DNA of 64,000 nucleotides from Spirochaetia bacterium (GTDB lineage Bacteria; Spirochaetota; Spirochaetia; SZUA-6; Bin103), in contig CBDBOV010000003.1 of the NCBI GenBank assembly GCA_965208575.1, forward strand, positions 1 to 64,000, in the 5' to 3' direction. Both the position numbers and the translations under genes were made by a program. The notes beneath the pieces are model-generated. The model worked only from the letters and a program-made list of their open reading frames with translations, did no database searches and was not told where the DNA came from. Below are positions 39,848-64,000 of the stretch, in pieces. The first letter of the stretch is position 1. Each line of letters starts with the position of its first letter.

Positions 39848-39954
39848 AAAACCGTCCTCGTTCCACTGAACATTACAATTCGTTGTTGTACATATGCCGT
39901 CGTTGGGCGATACTTGTCAAGACAGTCAGCGCTGCAATCACTCCGTGGCGCACC

Positions 39955-46292: not shown

Positions 46293-46395
46293 AGTGCCGA
46301 TCCTGCATACGAAGGCGCGCGGCAGCCCAGTAAGCAGCCACTTGTCAGTTCATGCACAAGACATTCCCGCGTTGCGCTGGGAGCCGCAATCCCAT

Positions 46396-47526: not shown

Positions 47527-47716
47527 GGAAGCAGCTGCTCCTTCAATGTTTGCCGTCTATCCTTGAGATCGAGATCCAATAGAGGTCGCCACTTGCGCAT
47601 ATGAGGAACCGAGGTGGTAATGCGTTGATCGCAGACCACCACTATATCACTACTGCATCGACCTGGCAATAAACAAAGCATTGAGTCTCGCAGGAGACGA
47701 GAACGCGCGGGCTCTA

Positions 47717-49099
47717 CTAGGTCACATTGTCCACCGTGGCAGCCCTGCGACTGTACGACCCGCCGGCCAGATCAGTCCGAATGCGGTTCAGCTTGGCGGT
47801 TTGCTTCGGATCGGTGATCAAGTTCCGCCAATACTCAAAAAAGAATGCAAGAAGTGTCGACAGTCCGAACACGATTACTGTCCCGATCTGGCAGATCCGT
47901 GAACGGCTTGGCCTAAGTTTGGTAGTGGGGATCTCCGCAGGCTCGATGATGGTGAACGCAGGGATGGTCGCCCGTGCGTTGATCGCTTGTGCATGTTCGC
48001 TGCGTAGCCAGTCGTGGATTCTCAAGTGAAAGTCCAGGTCCCGACGTAATTCGCGGTAGCGAGCGAGCATCCCCGGGAACTCACTCTCTGGAATTGTCAC
48101 AGCCGAGAACTCGTTGAAACCTGCGTGAAGCTCATCCACTGCTCGACGTAAGATATCGGTTTCGCTCTCCAGCGTTACGATCGTCGGATCGCTTTCCGGA
48201 AATGTGCCGCGTAGAGAGCGTAACTGCAATTCGTTAGAGAGTACCCGTTCCCTGAAACTCGAAGCTAGATTCGTGGCCAAGGCTCGTTGTTCACCGGGGT
48301 GGATGAACCCGCTTGTTACTTGGAATGCTTGCAGGCGCGTCTGTGCAACTCTTTGAACGTCAGCAACTATCCGCAACCGGTCTTCGATGTGTCGTCTTCT
48401 TTCTTTTTGTGGTTCCTCGAATACTGTGCGGAGACGTTCACCAAGAAGTACAAGAGCACGCTCTAGCACCGCGGCCGAGAGTTGCGCGGATGTTGACTCG
48501 TATGAAATCGTCATTACGGAAGAGCTCTCATCGAATCGACTCCGTAGCGAATCGTTGAGCATTTGACGAGCGCGAGCCCTGTCGTTCACCCCCGAGGGGC
48601 CGATGAAGCCAAAATCGTCGATGATCTGGTCTTGAATCGTACGTCCCGCGAGCAGCTCAGTCGCCAATGCTGCGGTCCTCTTGACGCTCCTCGAAGTCAC
48701 CGTCCTCGCAGAGGGTCTCACTCGAGATCCGAAAGGAGTCCTGTCGGAAGCCAGCGAATATTGGCGCGAATCAGGGTAATCCAATAGCAAGACGCTAGCC
48801 TCGGATCGGTAAATGTTGGGTAGCAGATTCCAAGGGCTCGAGCTGGGAAGATAGAGAGTTAGAAGCGCGTACGAAAAGATCAATACAGCTCCGATGGTGG
48901 TGCTGGCGACGACGAATCGAAATCGTTCGAATGGGACTCGCAGTAGGTCGTACAGCGAAATGGAGTCATCGGGTACCGTATCACCGCCGACCGGCTGACC
49001 GAGTTCATGGACGCGTTGGTCATCCATACGCTGCTGGCTGGTCGTTAGGTGGTCGAACTCACGTTGGAACTCGTCGCGTGAGCGCCGCGTACTCGCCAC
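47717..49099 (-). CDS. Polysaccharide co-polymerase / chain-length determinant (Wzz/GumC-like)
   Basis: ISLYDLL, two TM segments flanking a coiled coil, IIEPAEIP..K.RPSR. Confidence 0.8.
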   Translation of the reverse strand: MASTRRSRDEFQREFDHLTTSQQRMDDQRVHELGQPVGGDTVPDDSISLYDLLRVPFERFRFVVASTTIGAVLIFSYALLTLYLPSSSPWNLLPNIYRSEASVLLLDYPDSRQYSLASDRTPFGSRVRPSARTVTSRSVKRTAALATELLAGRTIQDQIIDDFGFIGPSGVNDRARARQMLNDSLRSRFDESSSVMTISYESTSAQLSAAVLERALVLLGERLRTVFEEPQKERRRHIEDRLRIVADVQRVAQTRLQAFQVTSGFIHPGEQRALATNLASSFRERVLSNELQLRSLRGTFPESDPTIVTLESETDILRRAVDELHAGFNEFSAVTIPESEFPGMLARYRELRRDLDFHLRIHDWLRSEHAQAINARATIPAFTIIEPAEIPTTKLRPSRSRICQIGTVIVFGLSTLLAFFFEYWRNLITDPKQTAKLNRIRTDLAGGSYSRRAATVDNVT

Positions 49100-49157
49100 C
49101 GTCTCAGCTCCAATCTCCGGTGGTCGCGCCTAAACCGGACGACGTACGTTCGCCCGG

Positions 49158-50267
49158 CTACTTGGTGGGCTGGCTGTCTGGACGAACGGCGACCGGGGGA
49201 CAACTGGCACCCTGGTACTGAGGGTCGCCATCGGGGATATTGCGGAGATACCAGGCAACGAATCGGTCTACGCCCTCGGTAAGCGAGGTGTGGACCTTGT
49301 GTCCGATTTCTTCTTGCAGCGCGGTGGTGTCGGCCCAGGTGCGGGGGACGTCGCCGGGTTGGATGGGGACTTGACGGGTTACGGCTTTCTTGCCCAAGGC
49401 GTTTTCGAGGGCGGCTACCAGGTCGAGGACCGAGACGGGGTCGCCGTTGCCGATGTTGTAGACGCGGGCAGGGGCCGGGGAGACGGCGGACTGGCGGCCG
49501 TCCCAGTCGGCGGCGCCTTGGGGCCGATGGTCGATCACGCGGTGGATGGCTTCGACGACATCGTCGATGTAGGTGAAGTCGCGTTCCATGTCACCGTGGT
49601 TGTAGAGGTCGATCGGGTCGCCGTTCATAATGGCGCGGGTGAAGGAGAACAGCGCCATGTCGGGGCGGCCCCAGGGGCCGTATACGGTGAAGAAGCGCAG
49701 GCCGGTTGACGGGATGCCGAACAGGTGCGAGTAGCTGTGCGCCATCAACTCGTTGGCGCGCTTGGTGGCGGCGTACAGGCTGACGGGATGGTCGGCGGCG
49801 GTGGACTCGGTGAACGGAACGTGGCGGTCGAGGCCGTACACCGAGCTGGACGAGGCGTAGACCAGGTGTCGCACCGGGGTCTTGCGGCACGCTTCGAGCA
49901 CGCTCAGGAAGCCGTGCACGTTGTTCGAGGTGTAGGCGAACGGGTCGCTGAGCGAGTAGCGGACGCCGGCTTGCGCGGCCAGATGGCATACCACGTCGAA
50001 GCGTTGTTCCGCGCACAGGGCCGCAACTGCGTCGGCGTCCGCAAGGTCGAGGCGTCGGAAGCGCAGTCCCGACTCGGCGGTGAAGGTTTCGGGACCGCAT
50101 GTCTCGTTGCAGACGATTCCGAGTTCATGCAAGCGGTCCAGCTTGAGCTGGACGTCGTAGTAGCGGTTGAGGTTGTCGATCCCAAACACGCGGTGGCCCA
50201 ACTCGACCATGCGGCGTGCGAGGTGGAAGCCGATGAAACCGGCAATTCCGGTAATGAGAATCTTCAC
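49158..50267 (-). CDS. UDP-glucuronate 4-epimerase (WbnF/CapI-like)
   Basis: HLAAQAGVRYS, SLYAATK, RFFTVYGPWGRPDMA, RDFTYIDD, QPGDV. Confidence 0.92.
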   Translation of the reverse strand: MKILITGIAGFIGFHLARRMVELGHRVFGIDNLNRYYDVQLKLDRLHELGIVCNETCGPETFTAESGLRFRRLDLADADAVAALCAEQRFDVVCHLAAQAGVRYSLSDPFAYTSNNVHGFLSVLEACRKTPVRHLVYASSSSVYGLDRHVPFTESTAADHPVSLYAATKRANELMAHSYSHLFGIPSTGLRFFTVYGPWGRPDMALFSFTRAIMNGDPIDLYNHGDMERDFTYIDDVVEAIHRVIDHRPQGAADWDGRQSAVSPAPARVYNIGNGDPVSVLDLVAALENALGKKAVTRQVPIQPGDVPRTWADTTALQEEIGHKVHTSLTEGVDRFVAWYLRNIPDGDPQYQGASCPPVAVRPDSQPTK

Positions 50268-50296
50268 AGATCGCATTATGAGCCCTCAGGCGCTTA

Positions 50297-51735
50297 GGGG
50301 CAACAGGGCAGGGGGGGTGCGAACGCCGAAAGCGGTAGCAAATCATTGACTCTGAGGCGGAAAAAAGGTCTACCTACCCCACGACACCACACCATGGGGA
50401 GGTAGACCATGAATACGGAAGGACTTATAACGGCCGCCGAGGGCCTTGTCAAGGAGTTGCAAGGGCGCATCAACGGCGGCCGGATGGATCTCCAGGAGGC
50501 GGAAGCCAAGATCCTTGAGATGGTGAACTGGATCGGCGACGAGATGGTGCAGGAAGTGGTAGCCGGACTCGCGGAGCCGACATCCGCCAACCAGATCACG
50601 GTTGGCGGTGAGGTGGCAGTGTTCGAGCGGGTGCGTAACCTGCGGTTCATCAACCGCTTCGGCGAAGAAGTGGTGCACCCGCGGCGCTGCTACCGGTACC
50701 GGCACCGGAGCGGAGGCGTGGCGCCGCTGGATGTGAAGCTGGGGATCGACGGGTGCTTCGGATTCTCACCGCTGATGACGTACCTGATCTGCATGCTGGG
50801 CGCGGATGAGTCGTATGCCGGTGCAGCGGCAAAACTGGAGGCGATGCTCGGGTTCAAGGTGAGCTCGACGGCGGTGCAGCGCACTACCGAGAAGACGGGA
50901 GAGCGGATACCCGATACCCCCGACGATCTAATTGATGAGCAGCGTCAGCGGCAGCCATGTTCCCTGATGGTGGTCGAGGTAGACGGAACGACGAGCCCGC
51001 AGATCACGGAGCAGGAAGGGATTACTGGTCTTGCCAGCCTCCGGGCGCCGACCTGTTACAAGGAGTGCAACCTGATAGTCATCGAGAAGCACGATGATGG
51101 CAAGGTGATCGACCGCTGGACCGGAGGACGCTATGGACCACGCGGTGAGTTTGCCGGCTACGCCGAGCAGGCTGGACTGCGAATGGGCTTCCTGGACGCT
51201 CCACGAACGCTGTTCCTCGGTGATGGTGCACACCACAACTGGGAACTGCAGCAGACCCACTTCCCCGGCGCGATACCGATCCTGGACTACTACCACGCGG
51301 CTGAGCACCTCGCCGATTACTGCAAGCTGCTGTCTGCTACGCTACGCGATGCCGTCGAGCGCAGCTTGTCCACGATGATGTGGGAAGGCGAGGTGCTGCA
51401 GATGATCCACGAGATGAAGCGTTCACTGTCGAAGGTCACCGATACTGACGAAGCGTGGAAGCAGATCAACTACTTCACGAACAACCAGGACCGTATGGAC
51501 TATGCCCGTTACCGCGATCTCGGGTGGCCGATCGGCAGTGGCTTGGTCGAAGGGCAGTGCAAATTGGTTGTCGGTCGACGCTTCAAGGGCAACGGGATGA
51601 GATGGCGACCGCACGACAACCGCTGCGTGCTACGCACCCGTCTGGCTCTGCTCAACGGCGACCTCAAGCGCTATTTCAGTCCTCCTGACGACTGCGAGAT
51701 CAAAGCGGCCTGATCGTGTCAACCCCTGTTACCGC
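50297..51735 (+). mobile_element. ISKra4/ISLre2-like insertion sequence
   Basis: Imperfect terminal IRs GGGGCAACAGGG (50297) and CCCTGTTACCGC (51724-51735) around the transposase; no target duplication seen. Confidence 0.65.
50409..51713 (+). CDS. Transposase, UPF0236/ISKra4-like
   Basis: EVDG, LGDGA..NW, LDYYHA.EHL, YF.NN..RMDY, IGSGLVEGQCK..V..R.K..GMRW. Confidence 0.88.
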   Translation: MNTEGLITAAEGLVKELQGRINGGRMDLQEAEAKILEMVNWIGDEMVQEVVAGLAEPTSANQITVGGEVAVFERVRNLRFINRFGEEVVHPRRCYRYRHRSGGVAPLDVKLGIDGCFGFSPLMTYLICMLGADESYAGAAAKLEAMLGFKVSSTAVQRTTEKTGERIPDTPDDLIDEQRQRQPCSLMVVEVDGTTSPQITEQEGITGLASLRAPTCYKECNLIVIEKHDDGKVIDRWTGGRYGPRGEFAGYAEQAGLRMGFLDAPRTLFLGDGAHHNWELQQTHFPGAIPILDYYHAAEHLADYCKLLSATLRDAVERSLSTMMWEGEVLQMIHEMKRSLSKVTDTDEAWKQINYFTNNQDRMDYARYRDLGWPIGSGLVEGQCKLVVGRRFKGNGMRWRPHDNRCVLRTRLALLNGDLKRYFSPPDDCEIKAA

Positions 51736-51824
51736 TTTTGGCATTGGCACCCGGCAGGGGACTCGTCAGTCGCCTACTCGCTCGCTCGTACACGGTGATC
51801 AATCATTTCCTCACTATCGCTTGC

Positions 51825-51953
51825 TCAGATCGACCGGAGTCGCAAAGCGAGGGGCAGCAACCGGCTGGCTCGAAGCCGGCACCGTCGCCGGTCAACTTGT
51901 CGTGCACTGATGAATATGTTGGAGTCGTCCCAATAGATGAAAACCTTGTCCAT
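51825..51953 (-). pseudogene. Collapsed NYN (PIN-like ribonuclease) gene remnant (not in the ORF track)
   Basis: MDKVFIYWDDSNIFISARQV joined out of frame to LTGDGAGFE, the N- and C-terminal acidic motifs of NYN domains. Confidence 0.62.
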
Positions 51954-51980
51954 TTCGAGTTCGGATCACTGCCTCAAGTG

Positions 51981-54028
51981 TCAGCGGTCGAACCAGAGTT
52001 GGTCGGCCCAGTACATCAGGTTGCCTTTCCAGTCGGTGTTGGAGACCGGGAACTCGGTGGGCACGTTGCGCAGGTCGTTGTTGGTGAGCAGGACGGCCGG
52101 GGCTTCGCCGACGGTGCCGATCACGAACACGTTGTTGCCGGTGAATTCGAACATCTGCTGGGCCAGCTCGAACCACTCGTCGGAGCCGAACTCGGACAGC
52201 CTCAACTGGCGCCGCCAGTCCGGAACTGGCGCTGCCAGTCGAAGTAGCGCTTCCATTCCGCGGGCGGCTCGGTGCCCGGCAGCTCGCCGCCGTAGTCGGA
52301 CAGCTTGCGTTCGCCGCGCTCGATCAGCCGGCGCGCCTGCTCCCACTCGTCGTAGCTGCCGGTCATGTTGAAGTCGCCGTGCAGGCCGACGCCGCCGGAG
52401 CCGGGACCGTCGTTGATCCAGTTCCAGAACTCGGTGATGGCGTCGATGCCGCCCGGCTGCAGCATGAACTCGTCGGCGGCGATGTTCTCGCCCCAGGCGG
52501 CGTCGTCCACCAGCCGCGGCACCACGCGCAGGTCGACCTCCGCCCACTGCGCGATCTCCAACTCGAACAGCTTGCTGATGTCCACCGGGCCGCCGGTGCG
52601 CGCGGCGACCTGGATGGTCAGGTTGGAGCCGTCCGGGAAGGTGCGGAAGCCGTCGCGGTCGCGCCCGCTCAGGCCCACTTCGTCGAGCAGGCTGCCCGCC
52701 TGCTCGGGGTCGTGCTCGGCCCACAGCCACTGCCACTCCGGTTTGTAGAAGCGCGCGGTGGAGTGGATGGTGGCCGCGGTGGGCCGGCCAAGCCCCAGGA
52801 AGTACACCTCGTTCAACTCGTCGCGGTCCAGGGCCAGCGACATGGCGCGGCGGAAGCGCACGTCGTTGAACAGCGCGCGGTAGTTCTCCTCCTTGTAGGT
52901 GGGGTTGAACCCGAACGCGCGGCCCACGTCGACGCCGGGAATCAGCGAGATGGTGTAGTTGCCGCGCTCCTCGTTCTCCTTGTAGTCGGGCAGGGAGGCG
53001 AAGTTGGTCATGGTAATCGCCCAGTCCACCTCGCCGGCGATCGCCTTCAGGTTGAACACCTCGGTGTCGGCGCTCGGGGTGGTGAGGATGCCGTCGATGT
53101 AGGGCAGTTGCTGGCCCTCGGGATCGACCTTCCAGAAGTAGGGATTGCGCTCCCAGCGCTCGACCTGGGCGCTGATCTCCTTCGCGATCCACGGCATCAT
53201 GGTGGGAGTCTCCAGGCCGACGCCGCGGATAATGTCCCAGTGCGCCACCAGCGCCTCGGCCCAGGTGTCGTAGCCCTCCTCCTCGGCCAGCTTCTGGGCG
53301 TCCTCGTTGTAGCGGATGTGCCACTTCTTGAGATAGTTGCTCGGCGCGTACTGCACGTAGTTGCCGCCCTTCCAGGTAGTCCAGCCGGGAATGACCACGT
53401 AGTCGATCTGCGACATGTGGAACTGCATGGCGTGGTCGTCGATCTTGGTGATGCTGACCGCGGTGGTGGGCGTCTCGCCGGCGCGCCAGCCGGGGTCGAC
53501 GCGGTCGTCCCACTTCATGTCTTCCATCACGAACATCAGGTCGTCGACGATGAACGGGTCGCCGTTGGACCACCTGGTGCCGGGGCGCAACTCCAGGGTG
53601 ACGGTGAGTCCGTCGTCCGAAACCGCGTAACCGGCGGCGATGTTGGGCACGATCTCCAGCGTCTCCTGGTGCATGGTCAGCAGGTAGATGTCGAGCATCT
53701 GGGTGGTCATTTCGCCGCCGCGCTGGTTCATGAAGCCGACCGCCTCCGATACCCGCAGCGTGCCCCCGTACCTGCCGACGCCGTCGGCGAGCATCTCCTG
53801 CACCACCGGATCGAACGGGATGCGCTCCTCGACCGGCGGCAACTCGCCCGCGGCAACCCGCGCCGCCAGCATCGGCGCCTCGCTGAACCGCCCGCTCATC
53901 GCCGCGCCGGCCCCGGCGGAAGCGCCCTGCTCCGCCTCGCCGGTAGCGAACGCCGCCACCGGCAACGCCAGCAGCAGGACGCCCGCCGCCAGCCACCGCC
54001 ACGTCATTGCAATCTTCGCCACAGACAT
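51981..54028 (-). pseudogene. ABC transporter substrate-binding protein family 5, copy 1, frameshifted by a 20-bp duplication (premature stop at 52202)
   Basis: EAPMLA..V..GELPPVEER.P, G.YGGTL, LR.G..WS.G.PF, ERNPYFWKVD..G.QLPYID; tail continues intact in the shifted frame to 51981. Confidence 0.88.
52201..52240. repeat. Imperfect 20-bp tandem duplication with palindromic core
   Basis: CTCAACTGGCGCCGCCAGTC CGGAACTGGCGCTGCCAGTC; copy 3 has only the second unit. Confidence 0.93.
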
Positions 54029-54040
54029 GCTCCGCGCCCA

Positions 54041-54068
54041 ATTGTATCAAACTTGGGCCGACGGTCAA
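54041..54068 (-). promoter_or_regulatory. Sigma70 promoter of SBP copy 1
   Basis: TTGACC-16-TACAAT with extended -10 TG; same boxes upstream of copy 2. Confidence 0.7.
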
Positions 54069-54253
54069 CGGCTACAACGCTGCCACCCGCTACGGCGCCG
54101 CAACCGGAGTAGGGAGCAAGCGCCAGCGCCAACAGCGGTACGCCGACTGCGCCGCCGTTGGTTGACATAACGGAGCAAGTTCGTGTCATTGTATCATGGT
54201 TGGCCGGTCGTCGAGCCGCACCACCAAACAGCGGCCGTCGCGGAGGTATCCTG

Positions 54254-54598
54254 GTGCAGAACGGAACCGCAGTGCCGGTTCAGGACGACGAAGGACTGAA
54301 ACAGATAGCGACAATCGCCCGGGAGGGCCTGGAGCAGTACAAGGTTCGGTTCAAGTTTCAGGTAGTGGTGGACCGCGAGTCGAACGACTACGGTGACAGC
54401 GACGGCGAACCGTACTTGGATATCGCTATCATATGTGATGTCAATAACGTCGACGAATTAGGAGCATCTGATCTGGTTGGTTACTTGATGACGCTGCGAG
54501 ATAAGCTGGTCGAGATCGGCGTGGAGGAGTTTCCGGTGCCGTCATTCTTTTTGAAATCAGAGTGGGAGGGGCTGAACAAGCACAGTGGATCCCCATAA
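54254..54598 (+). CDS. Small acidic protein, probable divergent MNT-like antitoxin
   Basis: GGAGG RBS; D.DGEPYLDIAII...FPVPSFF..SEW; overlaps the HEPN gene. Confidence 0.6.
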   Translation: MQNGTAVPVQDDEGLKQIATIAREGLEQYKVRFKFQVVVDRESNDYGDSDGEPYLDIAIICDVNNVDELGASDLVGYLMTLRDKLVEIGVEEFPVPSFFLKSEWEGLNKHSGSP

Positions 54599-55043
54599 GC
54601 TCTTGGCGGCGGCACGGGACCTCGTTCACTCGGGTATACAGGGCAACAGAGTAACTGATGAGTACCTTCGGCGATCTGTCAGCACGATCTACTATGCGCT
54701 ATTCCAGTGTTTGTCGAGATCCAATGCCGATGCGTTGGTTGGCGGCCCAAGGGCGCGGCGTGATCAGGAAGAGTGGGATTTGGCTTACCGTGCGATGGAT
54801 CACAGGAAGGCACTCAATCGTTGCCGCAGAAATGACGAGGTGAAGAGGTTCCCAGTAGAGATTCAGAGGTTTGCCAACCTGTTCTGTATAGCACAGGAAC
54901 AGAGGATCAAGGCGGACTATGATCCGCACGCAAGGTTTTCAGGCGGTTCGGTTCTGGTCGCGATAACATTCGCCACCATTATCATACAAAGATTCCGCGC
55001 GCTGCCGCGTCATAGTCGACGGGCGTTCGCGATTTATTGCTGA
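54585..55043 (+). CDS. HEPN-domain protein
   Basis: LRRSVSTIYYALF, AYRAMDH, QEQRIKADYDP. Confidence 0.8.
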   Translation: MDPHKLLAAARDLVHSGIQGNRVTDEYLRRSVSTIYYALFQCLSRSNADALVGGPRARRDQEEWDLAYRAMDHRKALNRCRRNDEVKRFPVEIQRFANLFCIAQEQRIKADYDPHARFSGGSVLVAITFATIIIQRFRALPRHSRRAFAIYC

Positions 55044-55076
55044 TCGACAAGAGGCGGGGATAGCGGCGTCCCTCTG

Positions 55077-57124
55077 TCAGCGGTCGAACCAGAGTTGGTC
55101 GGCCCAGTACATCAGGTTGCCTTTCCAGTCGGTGTTGGAGACCGGGAACTCGGTGGGCACGTTGCGCAGGTCGTTGTTGGTGAGCAGGACGGCGGGGGCT
55201 TCGCCGACGGTGCCGATCACGAACACGTTGTTGCCGGTGAATTCGAACATCTTCTGAGCCAGCTCGAACCACTCGCCGGAGCCGAACTCGGACAGCCTCA
55301 ACTGGCGCCGCCAGTCCGGAACTGGCGCTGCCAGTCGAAGTAGCGCTTCCATTCCGCGGGCGGCTCGGTGCCCGGCAGCTCGCCGCCGTAGTCGGACAGC
55401 TTGCGTTCGCCGCGCTCGATCAGCCGGCGCGCCTGCTCCCACTCGTCGTAGCTGCCGGTCATGTTGAAGTCGCCGTGCAGGCCGACGCCGCCGGAGCCGG
55501 GACCGTCGTTGATCCAGTTCCAGAACTCGGTGATGGCGTCGATGCCGCCCGGCTGCAGCATGAACTCGTCGGCGGCGATGTTCTCGCCCCAGGCGGCGTC
55601 GTCCACCAGCCGCGGCACCACGCGCAGGTCGACCTCCGCCCACTGCGCGATCTCCAGCTCGAACAGCTTGCTGATGTCCACCGGGCCGCCGGTGCGCGCG
55701 GCGACCTGGATGGTCAGGTTGGAGCCGTCCGGGAAGGTGCGGAAGCCGTCGCGGTCGCGCCCGCTCAGGCCCACTTCGTCGAGCAGGCTGCCCGCCTGTT
55801 CGGGGTCGTGCTCGGCCCACAGCCACTGCCACTCCGGTTTGTAGAAGCGCGCGGTGGAATGGATGGTGGCCGCGGTGGGCCGCCCGAGCCCCAGGAAGTA
55901 CACCTCGTTCAACTCGTCGCGGTCCAGGGCCAGCGACATGGCGCGGCGGAAGCGCACGTCGTTGAACAGCGCGCGGTAGTTCTCCTCCTTGTAGGTGGGG
56001 TTGAACCCGAACGCGCGGCCCACGTCGACGCCGGGAATCAGCGAGATGGTGTAGTTGCCGCGCTCCTCGTTCTCCTTGTAGTCGGGCAGGGAGGCGAAGT
56101 TGGTCATGGTAATCGCCCAGTCCACCTCGCCGGCGATCGCCTTCAGGTTGAACACCTCGGTGTCGGCGCTCGGGGTGGTGAGGATGCCGTCGATGTAGGG
56201 CAGTTGCTGGCCCTCGGGATCGACCTTCCAGAAGTAGGGATTGCGCTCCCAGCGCTCGACCTGGGCGCTGATCTCCTTCGCGATCCACGGCATCATGGTG
56301 GGAGTCTCCAGCCCGACGCCGCGGATAATGTCCCAGTGCGCCACCAGCGCCTCGGCCCAGGTGTCGTAGCCCTCCTCCTCGGCCAGCTTCTGGGCGTCCT
56401 CGTTGTAGCGGATGTGCCACTTCTTGAGATAGTTGCTCGGCGCGTACTGCACGTAGTTGCCGCCCTTCCAGGTGGTCCAGCCGGGAATGACCACGTAGTC
56501 GATCTGCGACATGTGGAACTGCATGGCGTGGTCGTCGATCTTGGTGATGCTGACCGCGGTGGTGGGCGTCTCGCCGGCGCGCCAGCCGGGGTCGACGCGG
56601 TCGTCCCACTTCATGTCTTCCATCACGAACATCAGGTCGTCGACGATGAACGGGTCGCCGTTGGACCACCTGGTGCCGGGGCGCAACTCCAGGGTGACGG
56701 TGAGTCCGTCGTCCGAAACCGCGTAGCCGGCGGCGATGTTGGGCACGATCTCCAGCGTCTCCTGGTGCATGGTCAGCAGGTAGATGTCGAGCATCTGGGT
56801 GGTCATTTCGCCGCCGCGCTGGTTCATGAAGCCGACCGCCTCCGACACCCGCAGCGTGCCGCCGTACCTGCCGACGCCGTCGGCGAGCATGTCCTGCACC
56901 ACCGGGTCGAACGGGATGCGCTCCTCGACCGGCGGCAACTCGCCCGCGGCAACCCGCGCCGCCAGCATCGGCGCCTCGCTGAACCGCCCGCCCATCGCCG
57001 CACCGGCCCCGGCGGAAGCGCCCTGCTCCGCCTCGCCGGTAGCGAACGCCGCCACCGGCAGCGCCAGCAGCAGGACGCCCGCCGCCAGCCATCGCCACCT
57101 CATCCCGATCTTTGCCACAGACAC
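55077..57124 (-). pseudogene. ABC substrate-binding protein family 5, copy 2, with the same 20-bp frameshifting duplication (premature stop at 55298)
   Basis: Near-identical to copy 1; duplication at 55297-55336; intact tail to 55077. Confidence 0.88.
55297..55336. repeat. Same imperfect 20-bp tandem duplication as in copy 1
   Basis: Identical to the 40-mer at 52201-52240. Confidence 0.93.
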
Positions 57125-57136
57125 GCTCTGGCCCCG

Positions 57137-57164
57137 ATTGTATCACACTTGGGCCGGCGGTCAA
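57137..57164 (-). promoter_or_regulatory. Sigma70 promoter of SBP copy 2
   Basis: TTGACC-16-TACAAT with extended -10 TG. Confidence 0.7.
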
Positions 57165-57473
57165 CGGCTGCGACGCTGCCACGCATTACGGCGCCACGGC
57201 CGGGGTAGGGATTGATCCGAGAACTACCGCGTCCACGTTTTCGCGCAGCCAGGCGGGGTGGTCCGCCGGCGATGGCCATCGAGGCTCGGCACCGAGACGC
57301 CCGATCGTTGCCGCAATCGGGTGAAGCATGAACTTGACACTGCCGTTGGCGGACTACGTTCGGTGCCCAGCCCGATGGCGAACGAGGGGCAGCGGAGCAA
57401 CTGGCACGGGCGAGCCGGAGAAGGCGAATCGGCCAGCCGCGCGACAAGTACTTCCAGCGGGGTGTTCTCGAGA

Positions 57474-57986
57474 TCACACACTGCTCTGCGAGCTCAACCG
57501 AATGATCGGGGAATTCGGAAAACTGAGGTTCCACGTTTGCATGTTGAACACGCCAACACGGCGCACGAGAGGTCTCCGCCACTTCTGGCCCTTGGGCCCA
57601 AGACGAGGAAGCTTTCTTCTCAATTCGGTGTGTCTTTGGAGCAACAGGGGTTTCGGAATACCGGTGATTATCACGAAGTAGTCTATCGGCTTGGCGGCCT
57701 TACCGGAGGCCCATTCATAGAGAAATGTATCGCGAAACTTGTACGTGAGCGAGTCGTCAAGAACACCGCTCTTGAACTCGCCCATGAAGCGCTTTAAACT
57801 GGGAACTGATGTCTGTGGGTTGCGGGGGTCCTTCAGTTCGATGAACTGATAGTGCCGCTGCATCTCGACAACGAAGTCGACAGCCTTCATGCAGTGACTG
57901 AGTCCGTGCACAAGAGGGTCGTCGAATCTACGCGCGTTCAGCGGGTTATTGAACGTAATCTGCAGGTCCCCCTCTACCAGGGTCAC
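57474..57986 (-). CDS. Hypothetical protein with PD-(D/E)xK-like nuclease motif, partner of the ATPase
   Basis: MKAVDFVVE...FIELKDP...KFRDTFLY; GTGA overlap with the ATPase stop. Confidence 0.7.
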   Translation of the reverse strand: MTLVEGDLQITFNNPLNARRFDDPLVHGLSHCMKAVDFVVEMQRHYQFIELKDPRNPQTSVPSLKRFMGEFKSGVLDDSLTYKFRDTFLYEWASGKAAKPIDYFVIITGIPKPLLLQRHTELRRKLPRLGPKGQKWRRPLVRRVGVFNMQTWNLSFPNSPIIRLSSQSSV

Positions 57987-59005
57987 GGCGTCTGTGCTCC
58001 GATTGTCCGCTCGATCTCCCGGTCATAGAGGTCGTCGAATGTAGCGGCAATCGCATTGGGATCGATGTAATCGAACTGGGCGGTCGAGTGACACATGATG
58101 TCACCCGTGTCAACGTCACGGTACAGTGAATGGTACATTATCTGGTCACCCTCCTCAGTGCGTAGGTCAAGTTCCTTGAGAATGACGTAGTCGTGGGTAG
58201 CCAGCAGTACTTGGAGACCGGTGCGCTGCAACTCCAGCAGAACGTCGATAACGGTGCCGAACAGCCCCGGATTCAGGTTCGTTTCCGGTTCGTCCCACAT
58301 TAGCACGGTGCCATCCCGGAGAGTGCCATTCTGGACAAGTATCCAGAGCAAGGCCAGTTTGCGTGTACCTTCTGCGAGGAGCGAGAACTCGATATTCCCG
58401 TGTCTGCTGGAAAGAAAGAACTCTTCATTCTTTACCGTGACGCGACCACCTATTGCCTTATTGAAGGTACGAAGAACACGCTTGTGAACGGCGTCGACAG
58501 ACTCGCGTAGTGGCGGGACATATGCACGATCGATAATATCTGCGTAGGTGTCGTCGAAGTGTATCTCTCGGGAGGCATGGAGGGAACGGAACCCCGGTGC
58601 GTTCGCGAGCAATTCCTTGACGGGTATGTAAACGCTATTGAGAGGATCGGTGCGCCAAATCCGCGCACGTTGTGCCTTAAGTGACGATGTAGAAGTGGTG
58701 TGGTTGGAGAACTTCAGGACCATCCTGTGCGTTCCCCGAAATACTCTTATGGTTGCGCTATTGCTGCCACTCTTTCGAGTGACAAGTCGACCTATGGAAC
58801 TACCGGACGGAAGAAATACTCGCACGAGTTTTTCGGCAAACCGAGAGTCCTGTCGGTATGCTTCGCAAGCAGCGTAGCACACCTTCATGAGATGAGTCTT
58901 GCCAGTACCGTTGGCTCCTAGCACGACGTTGATTCCTGGCGAAAGGTCAAGTGCAAGTTTGGAAAATGCGGTGAAGTTCTCCAGTTCTATTCTCGTTAGT
59001 GGCAC
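57983..59005 (-). CDS. ABC-type (AAA_21/AbiEii-like) ATPase
   Basis: Walker A GANGTGKT, degenerate signature LAEG.RKL, Walker B LMWDEPE, H-loop ATHD; GGAGG before GTG 59005. Confidence 0.88.
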   Translation of the reverse strand: MPLTRIELENFTAFSKLALDLSPGINVVLGANGTGKTHLMKVCYAACEAYRQDSRFAEKLVRVFLPSGSSIGRLVTRKSGSNSATIRVFRGTHRMVLKFSNHTTSTSSLKAQRARIWRTDPLNSVYIPVKELLANAPGFRSLHASREIHFDDTYADIIDRAYVPPLRESVDAVHKRVLRTFNKAIGGRVTVKNEEFFLSSRHGNIEFSLLAEGTRKLALLWILVQNGTLRDGTVLMWDEPETNLNPGLFGTVIDVLLELQRTGLQVLLATHDYVILKELDLRTEEGDQIMYHSLYRDVDTGDIMCHSTAQFDYIDPNAIAATFDDLYDREIERTIGAQTP

Positions 59006-59145
59006 GTAATTGCCTCCACTCGGATGTGCGCTCCCAGCACCAAAGGTCAAGCACCGGTGTACCGGGTTGCCGGGCACCAGGAACGGCGACAACCCTCACA
59101 ACCGGACTGGGAGCGCTCAGACGCTTCCGGGCAGCGCGGGATTCG

Positions 59146-61164
59146 CTAGCGGTCGAACCAGAGTTGGTCGGCCCAGTACATGAGGTTGCCTTTCCAGTCG
59201 GTGTTGGAGACCGGGAACTCGGTGGGCACGTTGCGCAGGTCGTTGTTGGTGAGCAGGACGGCGGGGGCTTCGCCGACGGTGCCGATCACGAACACGTTGT
59301 TGCCGGTGAATTCGAACATCTTCTGGGCCAGCTCGAACCACTCGTCGGAGCCGAACTCGGACAGCCGGAACTGGCGCTGCCAGTCGAAGTAGCGCTTCCA
59401 TTCCGCGGGCGGCTCGGTGCCCGGCAGCTCGCCGCCGTAGTCGGACAGCTTGCGTTCGCCGCGCTCGATCAGCCGGCGCGCCTGCTCCCACTCGTCGTAG
59501 CTGCCGGTCATGTTGAAGTCGCCGTGCAGGCCGACGCCGCCGGAGCCGGGGCCGTCGTTGATCCAGTTCCAGAACTCGGTGATGGCGTCGATGCCGCCCG
59601 GCTGCAGCATGAACTCGTCGGCGGCGATGTTCTCGCCCCAGGCGGCGTCGTCCACCAGCCGCGGCACCACGCGCAGGTCGACCTCCGCCCACTGCGCGAT
59701 CTCCAACTCGAACAGCTTGCTGATGTCCACCGGGCCGCCGGTGCGCGCGGCGACCTGGATGGTCAGGTTGGAGCCGTCCGGGAAGGTGCGGAAGCCGTCG
59801 CGGTCGCGCCCGCTCAGGCCCACTTCGTCGAGCAGGCTGCCCGCCTGTTCGGGGTCGTGCTCGGCCCACAGCCACTGCCACTCCGGTTTGTAGAAGCGCG
59901 CGGTGGAATGGATGGTGGCCGCGGTGGGCCGCCCGAGCCCCAGGAAGTACACCTCGTTCAACTCGTCGCGGTCCAGCGCCAGCGACATGGCGCGGCGGAA
60001 GCGCACGTCGTTGAACAGCGCGCGGTAGTTCTCCTCCTTGTAGGTGGGGTTGAACCCGAACGCGCGGCCCACGTCGACGCCGGGAATCAGCGAGATGGTG
60101 TAGTTGCCGCGCTCCTCGTTCTCCTTGTAGTCGGGCAGGGAGGCGAAGTTGGTCATGGTAATCGCCCAGTCCACCTCGCCGGCGATCGCCTTCAGGTTGA
60201 ACACCTCGGTGTCGGCGCTCGGCGTGGTGAGGATGCCGTCGATGTAGGGCAGTTGCTGGCCCTCGGGATCGACCTTCCAGAAGTAGGGATTGCGCTCCCA
60301 GTGCTCGACCTGGGCGCTGATCTCCTTCGCGATCCACGGCATCATGGTGGGAGTCTCCAGGCCGACGCCGCGGATAATGTCCCAGTGCGCCACCAGCGCC
60401 TCGGCCCAGGTGTCGTAGCCCTCCTCCTCGGCCAGCTTCTGGGCGTCCTCGTTGTAGCGGATGTGCCACTTCTTGAGATAGTTGCTCGGCGCGTACTGCA
60501 CGTAGTTGCCGCCCTTCCAGGTAGTCCAGCCGGGAATGACCACGTAGTCGATCTGCGACATGTGGAACTGCATGGCGTGGTCGTCGATCTTGGTGATGCT
60601 GACCGCGGTGGTGGGCGTCTCGCCGGCGCGCCAGCCGGGGTCGACGCGGTCGTCCCACTTCATGTCTTCCATCACGAACATCAGGTCGTCGACGATGAAC
60701 GGGTCGCCGTTGGACCACCTGGTGCCGGGGCGCAACTCCAGGGTGACGGTGAGTCCGTCGTCCGAAACCGCGTAACCGGCGGCGATGTTGGGCACGATCT
60801 CCAGCGTCTCCTGGTGCATGGTCAGCAGGTAGATGTCGAGCATCTGGGTGGTCATTTCGCCGCCGCGCTGGTTCATGAAGCCGACCGCCTCCGATACCCG
60901 CAGCGTGCCGCCGTACCTGCCGACGCCGTCGGCGAGCATCTCCTGCACCACCGGATCGAACGGGATGCGCTCCTCGACCGGCGGCAACTCGCCCGCGGCA
61001 ACCCGCGCCGCCAGCATCGGCGCCTCGCTGAACCGCCCGCCCATCGCTGCACCGGCCCCGGCGGAAGCGCTCTGCTCCGCCTCGCCGGTCGCGAACACCA
61101 CCACCGGCGCGAGCAGCAGGACACCCGCCGCCAGCCATCGCCACAACATCCCGATCTTGCCCAT
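59146..61164 (-). CDS. ABC substrate-binding protein family 5, copy 3, intact (672 aa)
   Basis: Same motifs as copies 1 and 2; single 20-bp unit at 59366-59385; uninterrupted frame. Confidence 0.92.
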   Translation of the reverse strand: MGKIGMLWRWLAAGVLLLAPVVVFATGEAEQSASAGAGAAMGGRFSEAPMLAARVAAGELPPVEERIPFDPVVQEMLADGVGRYGGTLRVSEAVGFMNQRGGEMTTQMLDIYLLTMHQETLEIVPNIAAGYAVSDDGLTVTLELRPGTRWSNGDPFIVDDLMFVMEDMKWDDRVDPGWRAGETPTTAVSITKIDDHAMQFHMSQIDYVVIPGWTTWKGGNYVQYAPSNYLKKWHIRYNEDAQKLAEEEGYDTWAEALVAHWDIIRGVGLETPTMMPWIAKEISAQVEHWERNPYFWKVDPEGQQLPYIDGILTTPSADTEVFNLKAIAGEVDWAITMTNFASLPDYKENEERGNYTISLIPGVDVGRAFGFNPTYKEENYRALFNDVRFRRAMSLALDRDELNEVYFLGLGRPTAATIHSTARFYKPEWQWLWAEHDPEQAGSLLDEVGLSGRDRDGFRTFPDGSNLTIQVAARTGGPVDISKLFELEIAQWAEVDLRVVPRLVDDAAWGENIAADEFMLQPGGIDAITEFWNWINDGPGSGGVGLHGDFNMTGSYDEWEQARRLIERGERKLSDYGGELPGTEPPAEWKRYFDWQRQFRLSEFGSDEWFELAQKMFEFTGNNVFVIGTVGEAPAVLLTNNDLRNVPTEFPVSNTDWKGNLMYWADQLWFDR

Positions 61165-61182
61165 GTCCACCCTCAAGATGAC

Positions 61183-61210
61183 ATCATAACGGACCACCCG
61201 CGCCCGTCAA
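61183..61210 (-). promoter_or_regulatory. Sigma70 promoter of SBP copy 3
   Basis: TTGACG-16-TATGAT, then GAGG and ATG 61164. Confidence 0.65.
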
Positions 61211-61253
61211 CCGGTCGTCGCGATCCGCCGCGGTCGCGGCTCGGCTGGGCGGT

Positions 61254-61904
61254 TCAGGAGCCGCTGGCCAGGTAGGGGGAGGACTCGTCGACGAACGCGC
61301 GCCACAGTTGGTACTTGGGGTTCTGCAGGCGCTCGGCCACGGTCGGGTTGGTGCGCGGCTTGGTGGGCTTGCGGCGCAGGCGCATGTTGGCGCCCTGCGG
61401 GGTACGGCCGCCCTTGCGGGAGTTGCACGGCACACAGGCGCTGACCAGGTTGTCCCAGGTGTCGCGGCCGCCCTGCGAACGCGGCACGATGTGATCCACG
61501 GTAAGGTCGCGGGTGGTGAACCGCTTGCCGCAGTAGTGGCAGCGGAACAGGTCGCGGGCGTGGATGTTGCGCCGCGTCAGGCGCACCTCGCGCTGCGGGC
61601 GCCCGGTGTAGTGCAGCAGGCGGATCACGCGCGGCACGGCAATCGCCAGGCGCGGCGTGTGCACCCAGTCGGGCGGTTCGTGGCCGTTGCCGTGCCGCGG
61701 CGGATTGTTGGAACGCACCAGGTCCGACCACAGCATCCACGCCGCCAGGTCGTAGGTCCGGAACTGCCCGTCGTCCGTGGTAACGACTTCGGCCGCCTCC
61801 CGGATGAGCAGAATGAACGCACGGCGGGCGTTGGTGATGCGGATCGCGGTGTATCCGCTGTTCAGGACCAGCACGTTGGATTCGAGAATTGCCAGCTTGC
61901 CCAC
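61254..61904 (-). CDS. HNH endonuclease (McrA-like)
   Basis: VLVLN..Y, VPRVIRL, TRRNI.ARD...CHYCG, TVDHIVPRSQGG..TWDNLVSAC..CN.RKG. Confidence 0.92.
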   Translation of the reverse strand: MGKLAILESNVLVLNSGYTAIRITNARRAFILLIREAAEVVTTDDGQFRTYDLAAWMLWSDLVRSNNPPRHGNGHEPPDWVHTPRLAIAVPRVIRLLHYTGRPQREVRLTRRNIHARDLFRCHYCGKRFTTRDLTVDHIVPRSQGGRDTWDNLVSACVPCNSRKGGRTPQGANMRLRRKPTKPRTNPTVAERLQNPKYQLWRAFVDESSPYLASGS

Positions 61905-61984
61905 GACGCCTCGCTCGGCGGTGATCTAGACACGTTTGCCGATTCAAGTCGATACCGCCGCCGTATCGGGTGTACCATCGGCGC

Positions 61985-63088
61985 ATGGCCGATCCCCGTT
62001 ATCAGCGTCTCGCCGACGTTATCGTGCACCATGCCTGCCGGGTGACCGCGGGCGACAAGGTGCTCATCGAGGCCTTCGACATGCCGGAGCGGTTTCTCGT
62101 GGTGCTCATCGACACGGTGGCCGCCGCCGGCGGCCATCCCCTGTGCATGACCAAGAGCAACCGCGTGCTGCGCGCGCTGTACCGCAACGCCACCGAGCAG
62201 CAGATGGCGGTGTGGGGCAGCGTCGAACGGCGCCAGATGGAGCAGGTGCAGTGCTACGTGGGCCTGCGCGGCAGCCTCAACAGCACCGAACTCGGCGACG
62301 TGCCGCACGACCGCTATGCCCATTACTCGCGCCACGTGTGGCACGCCGTGCACACCTCGCTGCGGATCAAGAACACGCGCTGGGTGGTGCTGCGCTGGCC
62401 GACGCCGTCGATGGCGCAGCAGGCGCAGATGAGCACGGACGCGTTCGAGGACTTCTACTTCGACGTGTGCACGGTCGACTACCCGGCGATGGCGCGCTCC
62501 ATGGAGCCGCTGCGCGAATTGATGGAGCGCACCGACCGGGTGCGCATCCAAGGGCCGGGAACCGACCTGAGCTTCTCGATCCGGGACATCCCGGTGGTGG
62601 GCTGCTCGGGCGAGCGCAACATTCCCGACGGCGAGATGTTCACCAGTCCGGTACGCGACTCCGTGCACGGCACGCTTGCGATCAACACCCCCAGCCTGAA
62701 CCGCGGCATCGTGTTCGACGGCATCCGCCTCGAGTTCGACAACGGCCGCATCGTGGCGGCGGACGCCAATCATCGCGGCGACCTGAACCGGATTCTGGAC
62801 ACCGACGACGGTGCGCGCTACGTGGGCGAGTTTTCGCTCGGGTTCAACCCGCGCATCATGCAGCCCATGCTCGATACCCTGTTCGACGAGAAGATCGCCG
62901 GATCGTTCCACTTCACGCCGGGCCAGGCGTACGAGGAGGCGGACAACGGCAACCGCTCCGAGGTGCATTGGGACCTGGTGGTGATTCAGCGCCCCGAGTT
63001 CGGCGGCGGCGAGATCTGGTTCGACGATCGCCTGATCCGCAAGGACGGGTTGTTCGTGGTGGACGAGCTGCTGGCGCTCAACCCATAG
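61985..63088 (+). CDS. Aminopeptidase, M29 (AmpS/AmpT) family
   Basis: GPGTDL, NIPDGE.F..P, GARYVGEF, LFDEKIAGSFH, N.SEVHWD. Confidence 0.92.
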   Translation: MADPRYQRLADVIVHHACRVTAGDKVLIEAFDMPERFLVVLIDTVAAAGGHPLCMTKSNRVLRALYRNATEQQMAVWGSVERRQMEQVQCYVGLRGSLNSTELGDVPHDRYAHYSRHVWHAVHTSLRIKNTRWVVLRWPTPSMAQQAQMSTDAFEDFYFDVCTVDYPAMARSMEPLRELMERTDRVRIQGPGTDLSFSIRDIPVVGCSGERNIPDGEMFTSPVRDSVHGTLAINTPSLNRGIVFDGIRLEFDNGRIVAADANHRGDLNRILDTDDGARYVGEFSLGFNPRIMQPMLDTLFDEKIAGSFHFTPGQAYEEADNGNRSEVHWDLVVIQRPEFGGGEIWFDDRLIRKDGLFVVDELLALNP

Positions 63089-63208
63089 ATGCCCTGGCCG
63101 GCGACCGCCGCCGGCTGGAGGAGATTCTGGCCCGCTATTGCCGCCGCTTCCTGGGAGCGGCCGGCCACCGGCCCGAACTCGGGGCCGCGATCCGGGGATT
63201 GCAGTGCG

Positions 63209-64000
63209 CTACCCGGCGTGCGGTGCCTGTTCGTCCGGCGCGCCGGATCCTGGAGCGCCGCCGTCCGGCGCTGCATCGTCCACGGCGTGTTCGCCGTCCG
63301 TGCCGTTCGGGTCCCCGTGGCGCACCGCGAACTGTTCCCACAGGATCACCGCCAGGGTGGCGATCACCGGTCCGACGATGAAGCCGATCAGGCCCAGCCA
63401 CACCAGGCCGCCGAGCGTCGACACCAGCACCAGCGCCGGGTGCAGGCCGGCGCGGTCGCCCACCAGCTTGGGCCGGATCAGGTTCTGGCTCACCACGGTG
63501 CCGGCCACGCCCACGGCGATCAGCCCGATGCCGCGGCCCACGTCGCCGAGAATGATGGCGATGATGCCGGCCGGCACGATGATGACGTTGATGCCGAGCA
63601 GCGGGAGCACCGACATGATCACCATGACCACGCCCCACAGGGTGGGCGACGGGAAGCCGAACACCGCGAACAGTACCGCTCCGAAGGTGCCTTCGATGAT
63701 GCCGATGAACAGGGTGCCGAGCACGGTGGCGTCCAGCGTGTTGGCGGCACGCTGCAGCAGTTCGCGGGAGTGCGCGCGGTCGAGCGGCAGCAGGCGGTAC
63801 ACGTACTGGATCAGCTTCTCGCCGTCGACCAGCAGGTAGATCACCAGGTAGATCACCACCACGCCGCGCAACGCGATGCCGGCGGCGCTCTGCAGGGCGG
63901 CGCGCGACGCGCTCAACGCCTGCGCGGCGGCGTCGCCGATCAGCGCCGAGATGCGCTCCTCGATCTGGTACTCCGCCATCAACTCCCGCACGCCCGGCAG
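63209..64000 (-). CDS. AI-2E family transporter (5'-truncated by window edge)
   Basis: YLLVDG, NLIRPKLVG...LHP.LVLVSTLGGL...G.IGFIVGPVI. Confidence 0.9.
   Translation of the reverse strand: MPGVRELMAEYQIEERISALIGDAAAQALSASRAALQSAAGIALRGVVVIYLVIYLLVDGEKLIQYVYRLLPLDRAHSRELLQRAANTLDATVLGTLFIGIIEGTFGAVLFAVFGFPSPTLWGVVMVIMSVLPLLGINVIIVPAGIIAIILGDVGRGIGLIAVGVAGTVVSQNLIRPKLVGDRAGLHPALVLVSTLGGLVWLGLIGFIVGPVIATLAVILWEQFAVRHGDPNGTDGEHAVDDAAPDGGAPGSGAPDEQAPHAG

Follow-up and report, generated by a model that had tools for sequence, protein, structure and literature searches.

We analysed a 64,000-nucleotide (nt) stretch of Spirochaetia DNA (contig CBDBOV010000003.1, positions 1 to 64,000; hereafter the window), in which three near-identical copies of a gene for a family-5 solute-binding protein (SBP) alternate with unrelated genes, several of which are recognisable as defence modules. 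A sequence-only reading of the window had described three direct SBP repeats with a sharp 3' limit and cargo of lower GC content between them, and this structure is confirmed. The repeats, here called copies A, B and C, are about 2.05 kb long, and the three SBP genes all lie on the minus strand. The copies and the features that belong to them are:

59146..61164, minus strand: SBP copy C, intact, with a signal-peptide-like N-terminus; the longest open reading frame (ORF) runs from the GTG at 61197 and encodes 683 amino acids
61183..61210, minus strand: promoter-like site of copy C (TTGACG, 16 nt, TATGAT)
55077..57124, minus strand: SBP copy B, frameshifted; N-terminal ORF 55298-57124, 608 amino acids
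55298..55317, minus strand: 20-nt tandem duplication in copy B, which creates an in-frame TGA (from the alignment of A, B and C)
57137..57164, minus strand: promoter-like site of copy B (TTGACC, 16 nt, TACAAT, with a TG extension)
51981..54028, minus strand: SBP copy A, frameshifted; N-terminal ORF 52202-54028, 608 amino acids
52202..52221, minus strand: 20-nt tandem duplication in copy A, identical to that of copy B (same alignment)
54041..54068, minus strand: promoter-like site of copy A, 10 of 12 consensus matches

The three copies are 97.5-99% identical in pairwise comparison, with C at 97.7% to B and 97.5% to A (BLASTN within the window, 2034 columns including a 20-nt gap). When identity is followed in 50-nt steps, it is mostly 96-100% inside the repeat and 4-54% outside, and the background level is reached within a single step. 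The spacing from start to start is 3096 nt for A to B and 4049-4069 nt for B to C. BLASTN with copy C found no fourth copy or fragment elsewhere in the 64-kb window. The encoded protein belongs to Pfam SBP_bac_5 (E = 2e-43 for C over residues 133-532, and 9e-44 for A). Homology had been said to stop at the stop codon; this is correct, and the limit falls inside the codon itself. The codon reads TGA at the end of A and B and TAG at the end of C. On the 5' side, A and B are alike for about 95 nt before the start, and C diverges near the start codon and has only the promoter hexamers in common with them. Four promoter-like (sigma-70-like) sites were found in 50200-62000, where shuffled sequence gave a mean of 1.9. 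Three of the four precede the SBP copies, and each of these three matches 10 of 12 consensus positions. The GC content is 63-72% in the SBP repeats against 51-57% in the cargo DNA between them.

The sequence-only reading overlooked the 20-nt tandem duplication by which A and B are truncated. It is the same in both copies and causes a frameshift, so that the protein ends at 608 amino acids and the last 75 or so codons are out of frame. Copy C is free of the duplication, keeps its full frame open (about 672-683 amino acids) and is the only intact SBP gene in the window. The absence of a transporter partner nearby was also rightly noted. Among the 66 window ORFs that we scanned (sets of 21, 14 and 31, the first two overlapping by two ORFs), there are no matches to BPD_transp or ABC_tran.

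Each copy is followed by different cargo. The cargo after copy C consists of two genes:

57983..59092, minus strand: HEC-02A, ABC-type ATPase (PADLOC PDLC04213, E = 1.4e-123, profile positions 3-335 of 337; Pfam AAA_21, 5e-19)
57474..57986, minus strand: HEC-02B, NERD-like PD-(D/E)xK nuclease (PADLOC PDLC04229, E = 8.5e-55)

These genes are adjacent and co-directional with a 4-nt overlap, and they lie on the strand of the SBP genes. A D...ELK motif is readable in the HEC-02B translation. They had been taken for an ABC-ATPase plus PD-(D/E)xK-like pair, and PADLOC confirms them as HEC-02A/B with near full-length profile coverage. Judged by these profiles, the array holds a bona fide HEC-02 pair. 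Part of a preprint (bioRxiv 10.1101/2024.01.29.577857) reports that a tested HEC-02 homologue lowers the plaquing of phages, that both genes are required, and that HEC-02 itself is found as an embedded module.

The cargo after copy B lies on the strand opposite to the SBP genes:

54158..54598, plus strand: small partner gene, 146-amino-acid ORF, overlapping the HEPN-like gene by 14 nt; 9 homologues
54585..55043, plus strand: HEPN-like protein, 152 amino acids, convergent with copy B; profile and fold match to 2hsb

These two genes had been read as an MNT-like/HEPN pair, and the two halves of that proposal fare differently. The HEPN assignment of the 152-residue protein has weak-to-moderate support from profile and fold. 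The family comprises 40 homologues of about 157 amino acids each, and profile matches were obtained to 2hsb (AF0298, UPF0332/HEPN; E = 7e-4) and 9xbd (E = 1.4e-3). The AlphaFold2 model has a predicted local distance difference test (pLDDT) score of 93.7, and its top match in Foldseek is again 2hsb (E = 0.078, template modelling scores 0.48/0.57), with further HEPN entries at ranks 3, 5, 7 and 9. Pfam HEPN is matched by 5 of 35 family members, with a best E value of 0.023. The canonical catalytic motif of HEPN proteins is Rx4-6H. It is absent from this protein, in which the next His stands 8 positions past the Arg and is unconserved in the family. The invariant residues of the family are R107 and Y112, within an R-x-x-A-D-Y-D-P stretch.

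The MNT-like half of the proposal is unconfirmed, since the small partner has no family or fold match. Its real start is probably near 54254, since its homologues are 111-116 amino acids long. Pfam, NCBIfam and PADLOC gave no matches and a PDB sequence search gave no assignment. The best Atlas score (0.87) is to unnamed clusters of about 100 amino acids. The structural model is of low confidence (pLDDT 65), and its top folds are OsmC/Ohr and KH-like (E about 0.01), none of them a significant match; a putative nucleotidyltransferase, 1ylq, appears at rank 17 (E = 0.03) in the search with this low-confidence model. MNT antitoxins carry a G-S...D-x-D motif, and none is evident in the small-partner alignment. 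The complex predicted for the HEPN-like protein and its partner scores 0.78, and the best of 3 controls scores 0.01. Among solved complexes, 116 of 157 reach the mark for such scores, as do 2 of 215 mismatched pairs; these figures are a rough guide since our own alignments were used. The model runs agree in at least 92% of contacts, the pLDDT of the partner in the complex is at least 77, and the interface includes residues 105-113 of the HEPN-like protein. The modelling supports binding of the small partner to the HEPN-like protein; part of the score may reflect likeness to HEPN-MNT complexes that are already solved.

The cargo after copy A is reduced to a remnant:

51825..51953, minus strand: NYN-gene remnant, of which only 51894-51953 is still homologous to the intact gene of a related locus, L002 (Pfam NYN, E = 7.4e-8 for the L002 protein)

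Its description as an NYN remnant holds, as the first 20 residues are 90% identical to the intact L002 NYN gene at the same junction (tblastn). The sequence of the junction between SBP and NYN is common to copy A of the window and L002.

Two genes bound the array and serve as landmarks for comparison with other genomes:

61254..61904, minus strand: HNH endonuclease gene, left flank of the array (Pfam HNH, 3.9e-17; HNH_5, 5.5e-17)
49158..50276, minus strand: NAD-dependent epimerase/dehydratase gene, right flank and first gene of a polysaccharide cluster (Pfam Epimerase, 3.2e-59)

We scanned genomes with the SBP. A total of 31 stretches matched, and the 13 that encode relatives resolve into eight loci, seven of them from Spirochaetia/Spirochaetaceae records of metagenome-assembled genomes. 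The ORFs of these loci were chosen by a codon-position GC filter, so that small or atypical genes may be missed. Arrays can be compared among three genomes (the window, L001 and L002) and one 2.7-kb contig (L008), with the L002 array cut at its upstream end. Within this set, the sequence-only reading was right to expect variation in the interval between the HNH and polysaccharide genes: SBP copy number, cargo and cargo order all vary.

L001 (OZ242313.1) is syntenic with the window and matches positions 64000-61254 (88% nt identity on the HNH side) and 50266-49249 (87% on the epimerase side). The HNH protein is 91% identical in amino acids to that encoded at L001:6950-7603, which adjoins the L001 array, and the epimerase gene, which in both relatives comes just past the array, is 87% identical in nt to that of L001 and 83% to that of L002. 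The L001 interval holds a phosphoribosyltransferase-like gene, a 150-nt SBP piece, homologues of the HEPN-like pair (40% and 29% amino acid identity; antisense to SBP as in the window), one full SBP gene and then the polysaccharide genes. L002 (OZ253572.1) ends at the same epimerase gene as the window and carries one full SBP gene and seven partial pieces in one orientation (12 BLAST segments). The cargo between its SBP pieces is, in order, an ADP-ribosylglycohydrolase with a 1570-amino-acid TmtA-like helicase; the intact NYN gene; a UvrD-like helicase (the protein is UvrD/GajB-like) with DarT and an ADP-ribosylglycohydrolase; and a truncated HEPN homologue with a methyltransferase. NYN precedes HEPN in L002 and follows it in the window. 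L008 (JAAXGO010000463.1, 2728 nt) holds an SBP 3' end, HEC-02 and an internal SBP segment at 94-97% DNA identity to the window, and its HEC-02A and HEC-02B proteins are 96.6% and 92.9% identical to those of the window. Cargo and SBP are joined differently in L008 and in the window, with 6 nt of overlap at the L008 joint. Although filed under Rhodothermales, the contig is probably mis-binned, to judge from its sequence.

Decay is common to these arrays. The window, L001 and L002 hold a single intact SBP gene each, and the surplus copies are frameshifted or cut by microhomology deletions. The 20-nt duplication of A and B is missing from L001 and L002, which have a full-length open frame, and from L008, which shows a 20-column gap against A and B. 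A promoter-like site equivalent to that of C is kept 5' of every full SBP copy in L001 and L002. Many of the L002 pieces are 5'-truncated and keep the 3' end, others hold only 5' or internal parts, and internal-deletion joints in L002 and L008 have overlaps of 5-17 nt (17, 12 and 5 nt in L002). The cargo decays as well, with NYN truncated in the window and HEPN truncated in L002.

Several further features of these arrays were observed. The motif TGA[CT][GA]GA opens several unrelated cargo segments straight after the SBP stop (window 55070-55079; L002 near 13253, 18998 and 21093), and it may be a remnant of an ancestral spacer between copies or part of a target site. At L002:9406-9615, a partial SBP lacks a stop codon and reads on for four codons, and a 64-nt scrap of the SBP 3' region follows about 110 nt later; this region suggests several nested rounds of insertion and deletion. 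In L002:13696-17797, the DarT-like gene stands between the UvrD-like helicase gene on its 5' side and the ADP-ribosylglycohydrolase gene on its 3' side. The usual partner of DarT is the macrodomain protein DarG. The downstream ADP-ribosylglycohydrolase gene gave no macrodomain match, and it may stand in for DarG. The other ADP-ribosylglycohydrolase gene of L002 (2242-3741) is in a different array unit, beside the gene for the 1570-amino-acid TmtA-like helicase.

The copies bear the marks of recombination with each other. In a tree of the SBP sequences, copies group by genome and not by the adjacent cargo. Over the last 300 nt, the window copies are 98.3-98.7% identical to each other, and the best-kept L002 copies (the full copy and the pieces f13255 and f19000) are 96.1-97.2% identical among themselves; the identity between the window and these three is 93.2-93.6%. 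The diverged L002 pieces are at 92.7-93.9% (f9440) and 86.5-87.7% (f21095). Identity falls at the 5' edge: in the 219 nt of the promoter and signal-peptide region it is 92.7% for A and B and 78-82% for C against A or B, compared with about 99% in the gene body. Of 21 body substitutions among the window copies, 17 are synonymous and 4 non-synonymous (P <= 8.6e-6 against random substitution), and those private to A or B are 13 synonymous and 3 non-synonymous (P <= 1e-4). Because the private differences are mostly synonymous, A and B did not diverge as pseudogenes, yet the frameshift is common to both. Such a pattern in aligned sequences is the signature of concerted evolution by gene conversion, in which the frameshift would have been copied from one unit to the other. 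The recombination among SBP copies that had been proposed is evident from the grouping by genome, the drop of identity at the 5' edge and the frameshift shared by two otherwise differing copies. The junction sequences of SBP with NYN and of SBP with HEPN are common to the window and L002; thus, at least these two units either are older than the split of the lineages or have passed between them.

The remaining five loci (L003-L007) show SBP paralogues, 78-85% identical in protein, in ordinary settings. FG-GAP/ASPIC genes lie 5' of the paralogue, two each in L003-L005 and one in L006, and the upstream flank of L007 is outside the locus. A strong GC-rich hairpin follows the stop codon of the paralogues and is missing from all array copies. 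In L006 and L007, a gene for an F420H2-dependent quinone reductase and OppB/OppC-type permease genes are found downstream, the permeases 2 kb away. An MNT gene is directly downstream of SBP in two of the five loci, with a HepT-like partner in L005 and alone in L006; nothing defence-like was recognised directly downstream in the other three. This small sample hints that the spot after this type of SBP attracts MNT/HepT-type modules. L003 also has a candidate defence pair, PDC-M38 (3814-5349; an AAA_21 ATPase, PADLOC E = 6.7e-77, and a DUF3226 protein), about 5 kb upstream of its SBP paralogue and beyond the FG-GAP genes.

The locus qualifies as a defence island and as a variable hotspot. At least two modules are clustered in it (HEC-02A/B, the HEPN-like pair and the NYN remnant), and the relatives add DarT, TmtA-like and UvrD/GajB-like genes; the flanking HNH and epimerase genes are conserved (83-88% nt identity), and the interior differs among the window, L001 and L002. 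We think it fairly likely, though well short of certain, that an orphan SBP gene, repeated together with its promoter, forms the scaffold of a chromosomal defence island here and that homologous recombination remodels the island. The SBP unit extends from just upstream of the promoter to the stop codon, and such units alternate with foreign modules of lower GC content. In this proposal, RecA-type homologous recombination among the SBP repeats would keep the copies alike through gene conversion, and this conversion would also have carried the frameshift from one of the copies A and B to the other. Units would be duplicated, deleted, swapped and permuted by unequal crossing-over or loop-out, along with DNA that enters from outside and is anchored by its homology to SBP. 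The sharp borders of the units could be due to past selection for working SBP copies and promoters, under which insertions would have been tolerated only in the short spacer from stop codon to promoter; that most differences are synonymous agrees with copies that were functional for a long time. The extra SBP copies would be substrates and by-products of recombination and not protected goods. A candidate route for the entry of cargo is homology-facilitated illegitimate recombination, which would also explain the 5'-truncated SBP pieces that keep their 3' ends.

Several points weigh against this proposal. The products of recombination, such as circles and copy-number variants, are without direct evidence, and the case is built on assembled sequence. 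The statement that the locus is variable refers to three genomes and one 2.7-kb contig, with L002 cut upstream. Clustering by genome could reflect independent duplications with independent acquisition of homologous cargo; this seems unlikely given the shared junctions, with which a transfer of units between lineages would be compatible. The starts of nine distinct downstream sequences all fall no more than about 10 nt from the stop codon, which would also fit a site-specific process. The first entry of new cargo into the spacer is not explained by the model. In addition, the polishing of long-read assemblies could exaggerate the identity between copies.

The sequence-only reading had gone further and regarded the locus as an integrase-free, integron-like array, in which a unit of SBP and cassette loops out as a circle of 3.1 kb or 4.1 kb and re-enters through SBP homology, and in which cargo of toxin-antitoxin type stabilises the copies. 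The unit structure with its spacings of 3096 and 4049-4069 nt agrees with such circles, as do the permuted cargo order of the window and L002, the SBP sequence that flanks the HEC-02 unit in L008 too, and the failure to find an integrase. The HEPN-pair cargo has 40-52% protein identity across genomes compared with 91-94% for the flanking SBPs, which fits an exchange of cassettes. However, there is no circle or junction evidence, and duplication and later deletion can account for the permuted order with no need of a free intermediate. The grouping of the copies by genome gives no hint that any was imported recently. The HEPN module runs antisense to the promoters of the SBP genes, so that no common expression logic is apparent. 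The idea that addictive cassettes protect the extra SBP copies is argued against by the decay of surplus copies and cargo in three genomes, where stabilisation is not seen. We regard the circle model as unlikely on balance. A bolder extension of it, which we hold just as doubtful, is that the SBP repeat, far from being a passive remnant, serves as a functional analogue of attC on the kilobase scale, the active scaffold on which a cassette system recombines without an integrase. It would allow the RecA-driven capture, circle excision, permutation and inter-strain trade of defence modules, and gene conversion would keep the scaffold competent for recombination even when its extra copies no longer function in transport.

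The likeness to integrons is an analogy only, and the sequence shows no mechanism by which cassettes would be captured. Like integron cassette arrays, this is a one-directional array of small unrelated modules, often of defence or toxin-antitoxin type, with a repeated element between them and with variable content and order. Unlike them, it has no IntI-type integrase, attI or attC; the repeated element is a 2-kb gene with a promoter, and exchange would depend on general homologous recombination. No IntI-type/Phage_integrase or other recombinase was found among the 66 window ORFs or the 48 scanned ORFs of L001 and L002, the latter being free of integrase and resolvase matches; only two transposases appeared, of the ISKra4 family and of DDE_Tnp_1. 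A search for attC-like ends, which was limited to a test for repeats, found no inverted repeat of at least 40 nt in 45000-64000, and the six junction segments had only arms of 10-15 nt, a size expected by chance. The co-orientation and single promoter of integrons are not seen either, as HEC-02 and NYN lie on the SBP strand, the HEPN pair lies on the opposite one and each SBP unit has its own promoter-like site. Having no integrase, no attC-like sites and cargo of mixed orientation, the array is, on the sequence features examined, not an integron. What remains of the earlier interpretation is a variable array that recombines and has no detected integrase; its integron identity and the protection of copies do not.

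A site-specific hotspot has been considered as well, to which we give a slim chance. Here, the end of the SBP gene would be the target of a trans-acting recombinase or nuclease, for which the neighbouring HNH protein is a possible candidate, and the SBP pieces would be carried target duplications as at islands in tRNA ends. No junction is more than about 10 nt from the stop codon and several open with the same short motif, many L002 pieces have lost their 5' part and kept the 3' end, MNT or MNT/HepT genes are directly downstream of SBP in two of the five paralogue loci, and the HNH gene beside the array is conserved. Against this, no integrase, resolvase or att-like repeat is present in or near any unit, and the cargo is only 1-2 kb and without mobility genes. 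Full copies with their own promoters and pieces with only 5' or internal parts are a misfit to a carried 3' target, and the modules of the paralogue loci follow the terminator hairpin and not the stop codon.

An assembly artefact, whereby separate one-copy loci were misjoined through the repeat or polishing made the copies alike, is very improbable. Misjoins are a classic result of repeats that, as here, measure 2 kb and are about 99% identical, but every copy can be told apart by substitutions of its own and has unique sequence on either side, the multi-copy arrangement recurs between the same flanking genes in two complete chromosomes that were assembled independently, and the junctions of SBP with NYN, HEPN and HEC-02 recur in L002, L001 and L008. 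Least probable of all is an amplification of SBP for dosage, or for use as silent donors that diversify an expressed SBP in the manner of spirochaete variation, with incidental cargo: one intact copy with broken ones, gene conversion and a promoter retained at each copy do resemble systems of expression site and silent cassettes, but 21 body differences, of which 17 are synonymous, leave almost no protein diversity to donate, for which reason antigenic variation was rejected, and with two of three copies truncated and one intact copy in the relatives, dosage is not maintained.

Among known systems, the array appears by analogy to work most like the integrase-free, homology-anchored arrays of polymorphic toxins, except for their in-frame extensions. 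In the orphan arrays of type VI secretion system (T6SS) effector-immunity modules, Rhs and CdiA, a conserved upstream gene is the homology anchor and there is no integrase; new modules join beside the anchor and displace the older ones along the array, where remnants of the 3' end of the anchor gene often precede them. Homology-facilitated illegitimate recombination has been proposed for the T6SS effector-immunity arrays of Vibrio cholerae (PMC5361080). The variable part of T6SS, Rhs and CdiA arrays is an in-frame C-terminal toxin domain with an immunity gene, whereas independent genes follow the stop codon here; the cargo has its own start codons and no in-frame C-terminal extension of SBP is found. 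The anchor also differs in being a transport-type SBP unlinked to the cargo, the cargo is of unrelated defence families, and whole anchors with promoters are duplicated. In Neisseria, the cassettes of minimal mobile elements have no mobility genes and are exchanged when homologous recombination takes place in the conserved genes that flank them. Those elements have two different flanks and one cassette per site, whereas here the same flank is repeated in a multi-unit array. The tuf genes and rRNA operons evolve in concert, with identity higher within than between genomes and falling at the edges of the repeats. The SBP copies share this pattern, but tuf and rRNA repeats are all functional and have no foreign cargo between them.

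Like other defence islands, this one clusters unrelated defence modules at one chromosomal spot between conserved genes. Defence islands are usually hotspots bounded by single-copy core genes, or they are cargo of mobile elements that carry a recombinase. In this case, a gene of the flanking type, a whole host gene, recurs between the modules, its copies evolve in concert, and the number, content and order of units vary without a visible recombinase. Word searches of open-access texts returned no account of a defence island whose scaffold is a repeated non-defence gene that evolves in concert, which is weak evidence of absence. If general recombination on repeats does build and reshuffle the island, a modular immune locus could arise in a simple way, without a dedicated enzyme. 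It would also suggest where to look for new defence genes, namely in the gaps that separate near-identical tandem paralogues; examples here are the HEPN-like pair, which has no name, and several ORFs of L001 and L002 that lack annotation. The locus further offers a clear example from bacteria of repeats that evolve in concert, with a disabling mutation that has apparently passed from one copy to another.

The HNH gene on the left directly abuts the first SBP unit (copy C), and its product has a zinc-finger-like motif. It may belong to the core genome or to the defence genes, or its product may make breaks that stimulate recombination within the array. Genes for an M29 peptidase and an AI-2E transporter are also part of this flank. 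There are no tRNA or tmRNA genes in the window and, because of this, no island target of the tRNA type. Rfam has no matches over 49000-64000 at E <= 0.1. Carriage on a plasmid was considered and rejected, as megablast of 51753-61253 against a plasmid collection gave no match.

On the right, an insertion sequence (IS) is located between the NYN remnant and the epimerase gene:

50315..51752, plus strand: ISKra4-family IS, transposase 50409-51713

The transposase scores 198.8 bits with the NCBIfam model, for which the curated cut-off is 205. The IS has ends with 26-nt inverted repeats (85% complementary) and is flanked by an 8-bp direct repeat, GGCAGGGG, at 50307-50314 and 51753-51760, as expected of a target duplication. 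It looks like a complete element and a recent, clean and separate insertion. We considered the IS as the cause of the NYN truncation and rejected it, since its ends and the 8-bp duplication are intact and 140 nt away from the end of the NYN homology.

The polysaccharide cluster covers about 31000-50300 of the window, with genes for glycosyltransferases, epimerases and a UDP-glucose dehydrogenase as well as flippase-like and chain-length determinant-like genes. Its GC content of 52-60% is under the 65-70% of the core, and for this reason the cluster itself is probably a variable, horizontally exchanged region that abuts the array. Further from the array, the second transposase gene of the window (22778-24538; Pfam DDE_Tnp_1, E = 5.5e-15) adjoins two genes with arylsulfotransferase domains (17299-22102), one of which also has Calx-beta domains.

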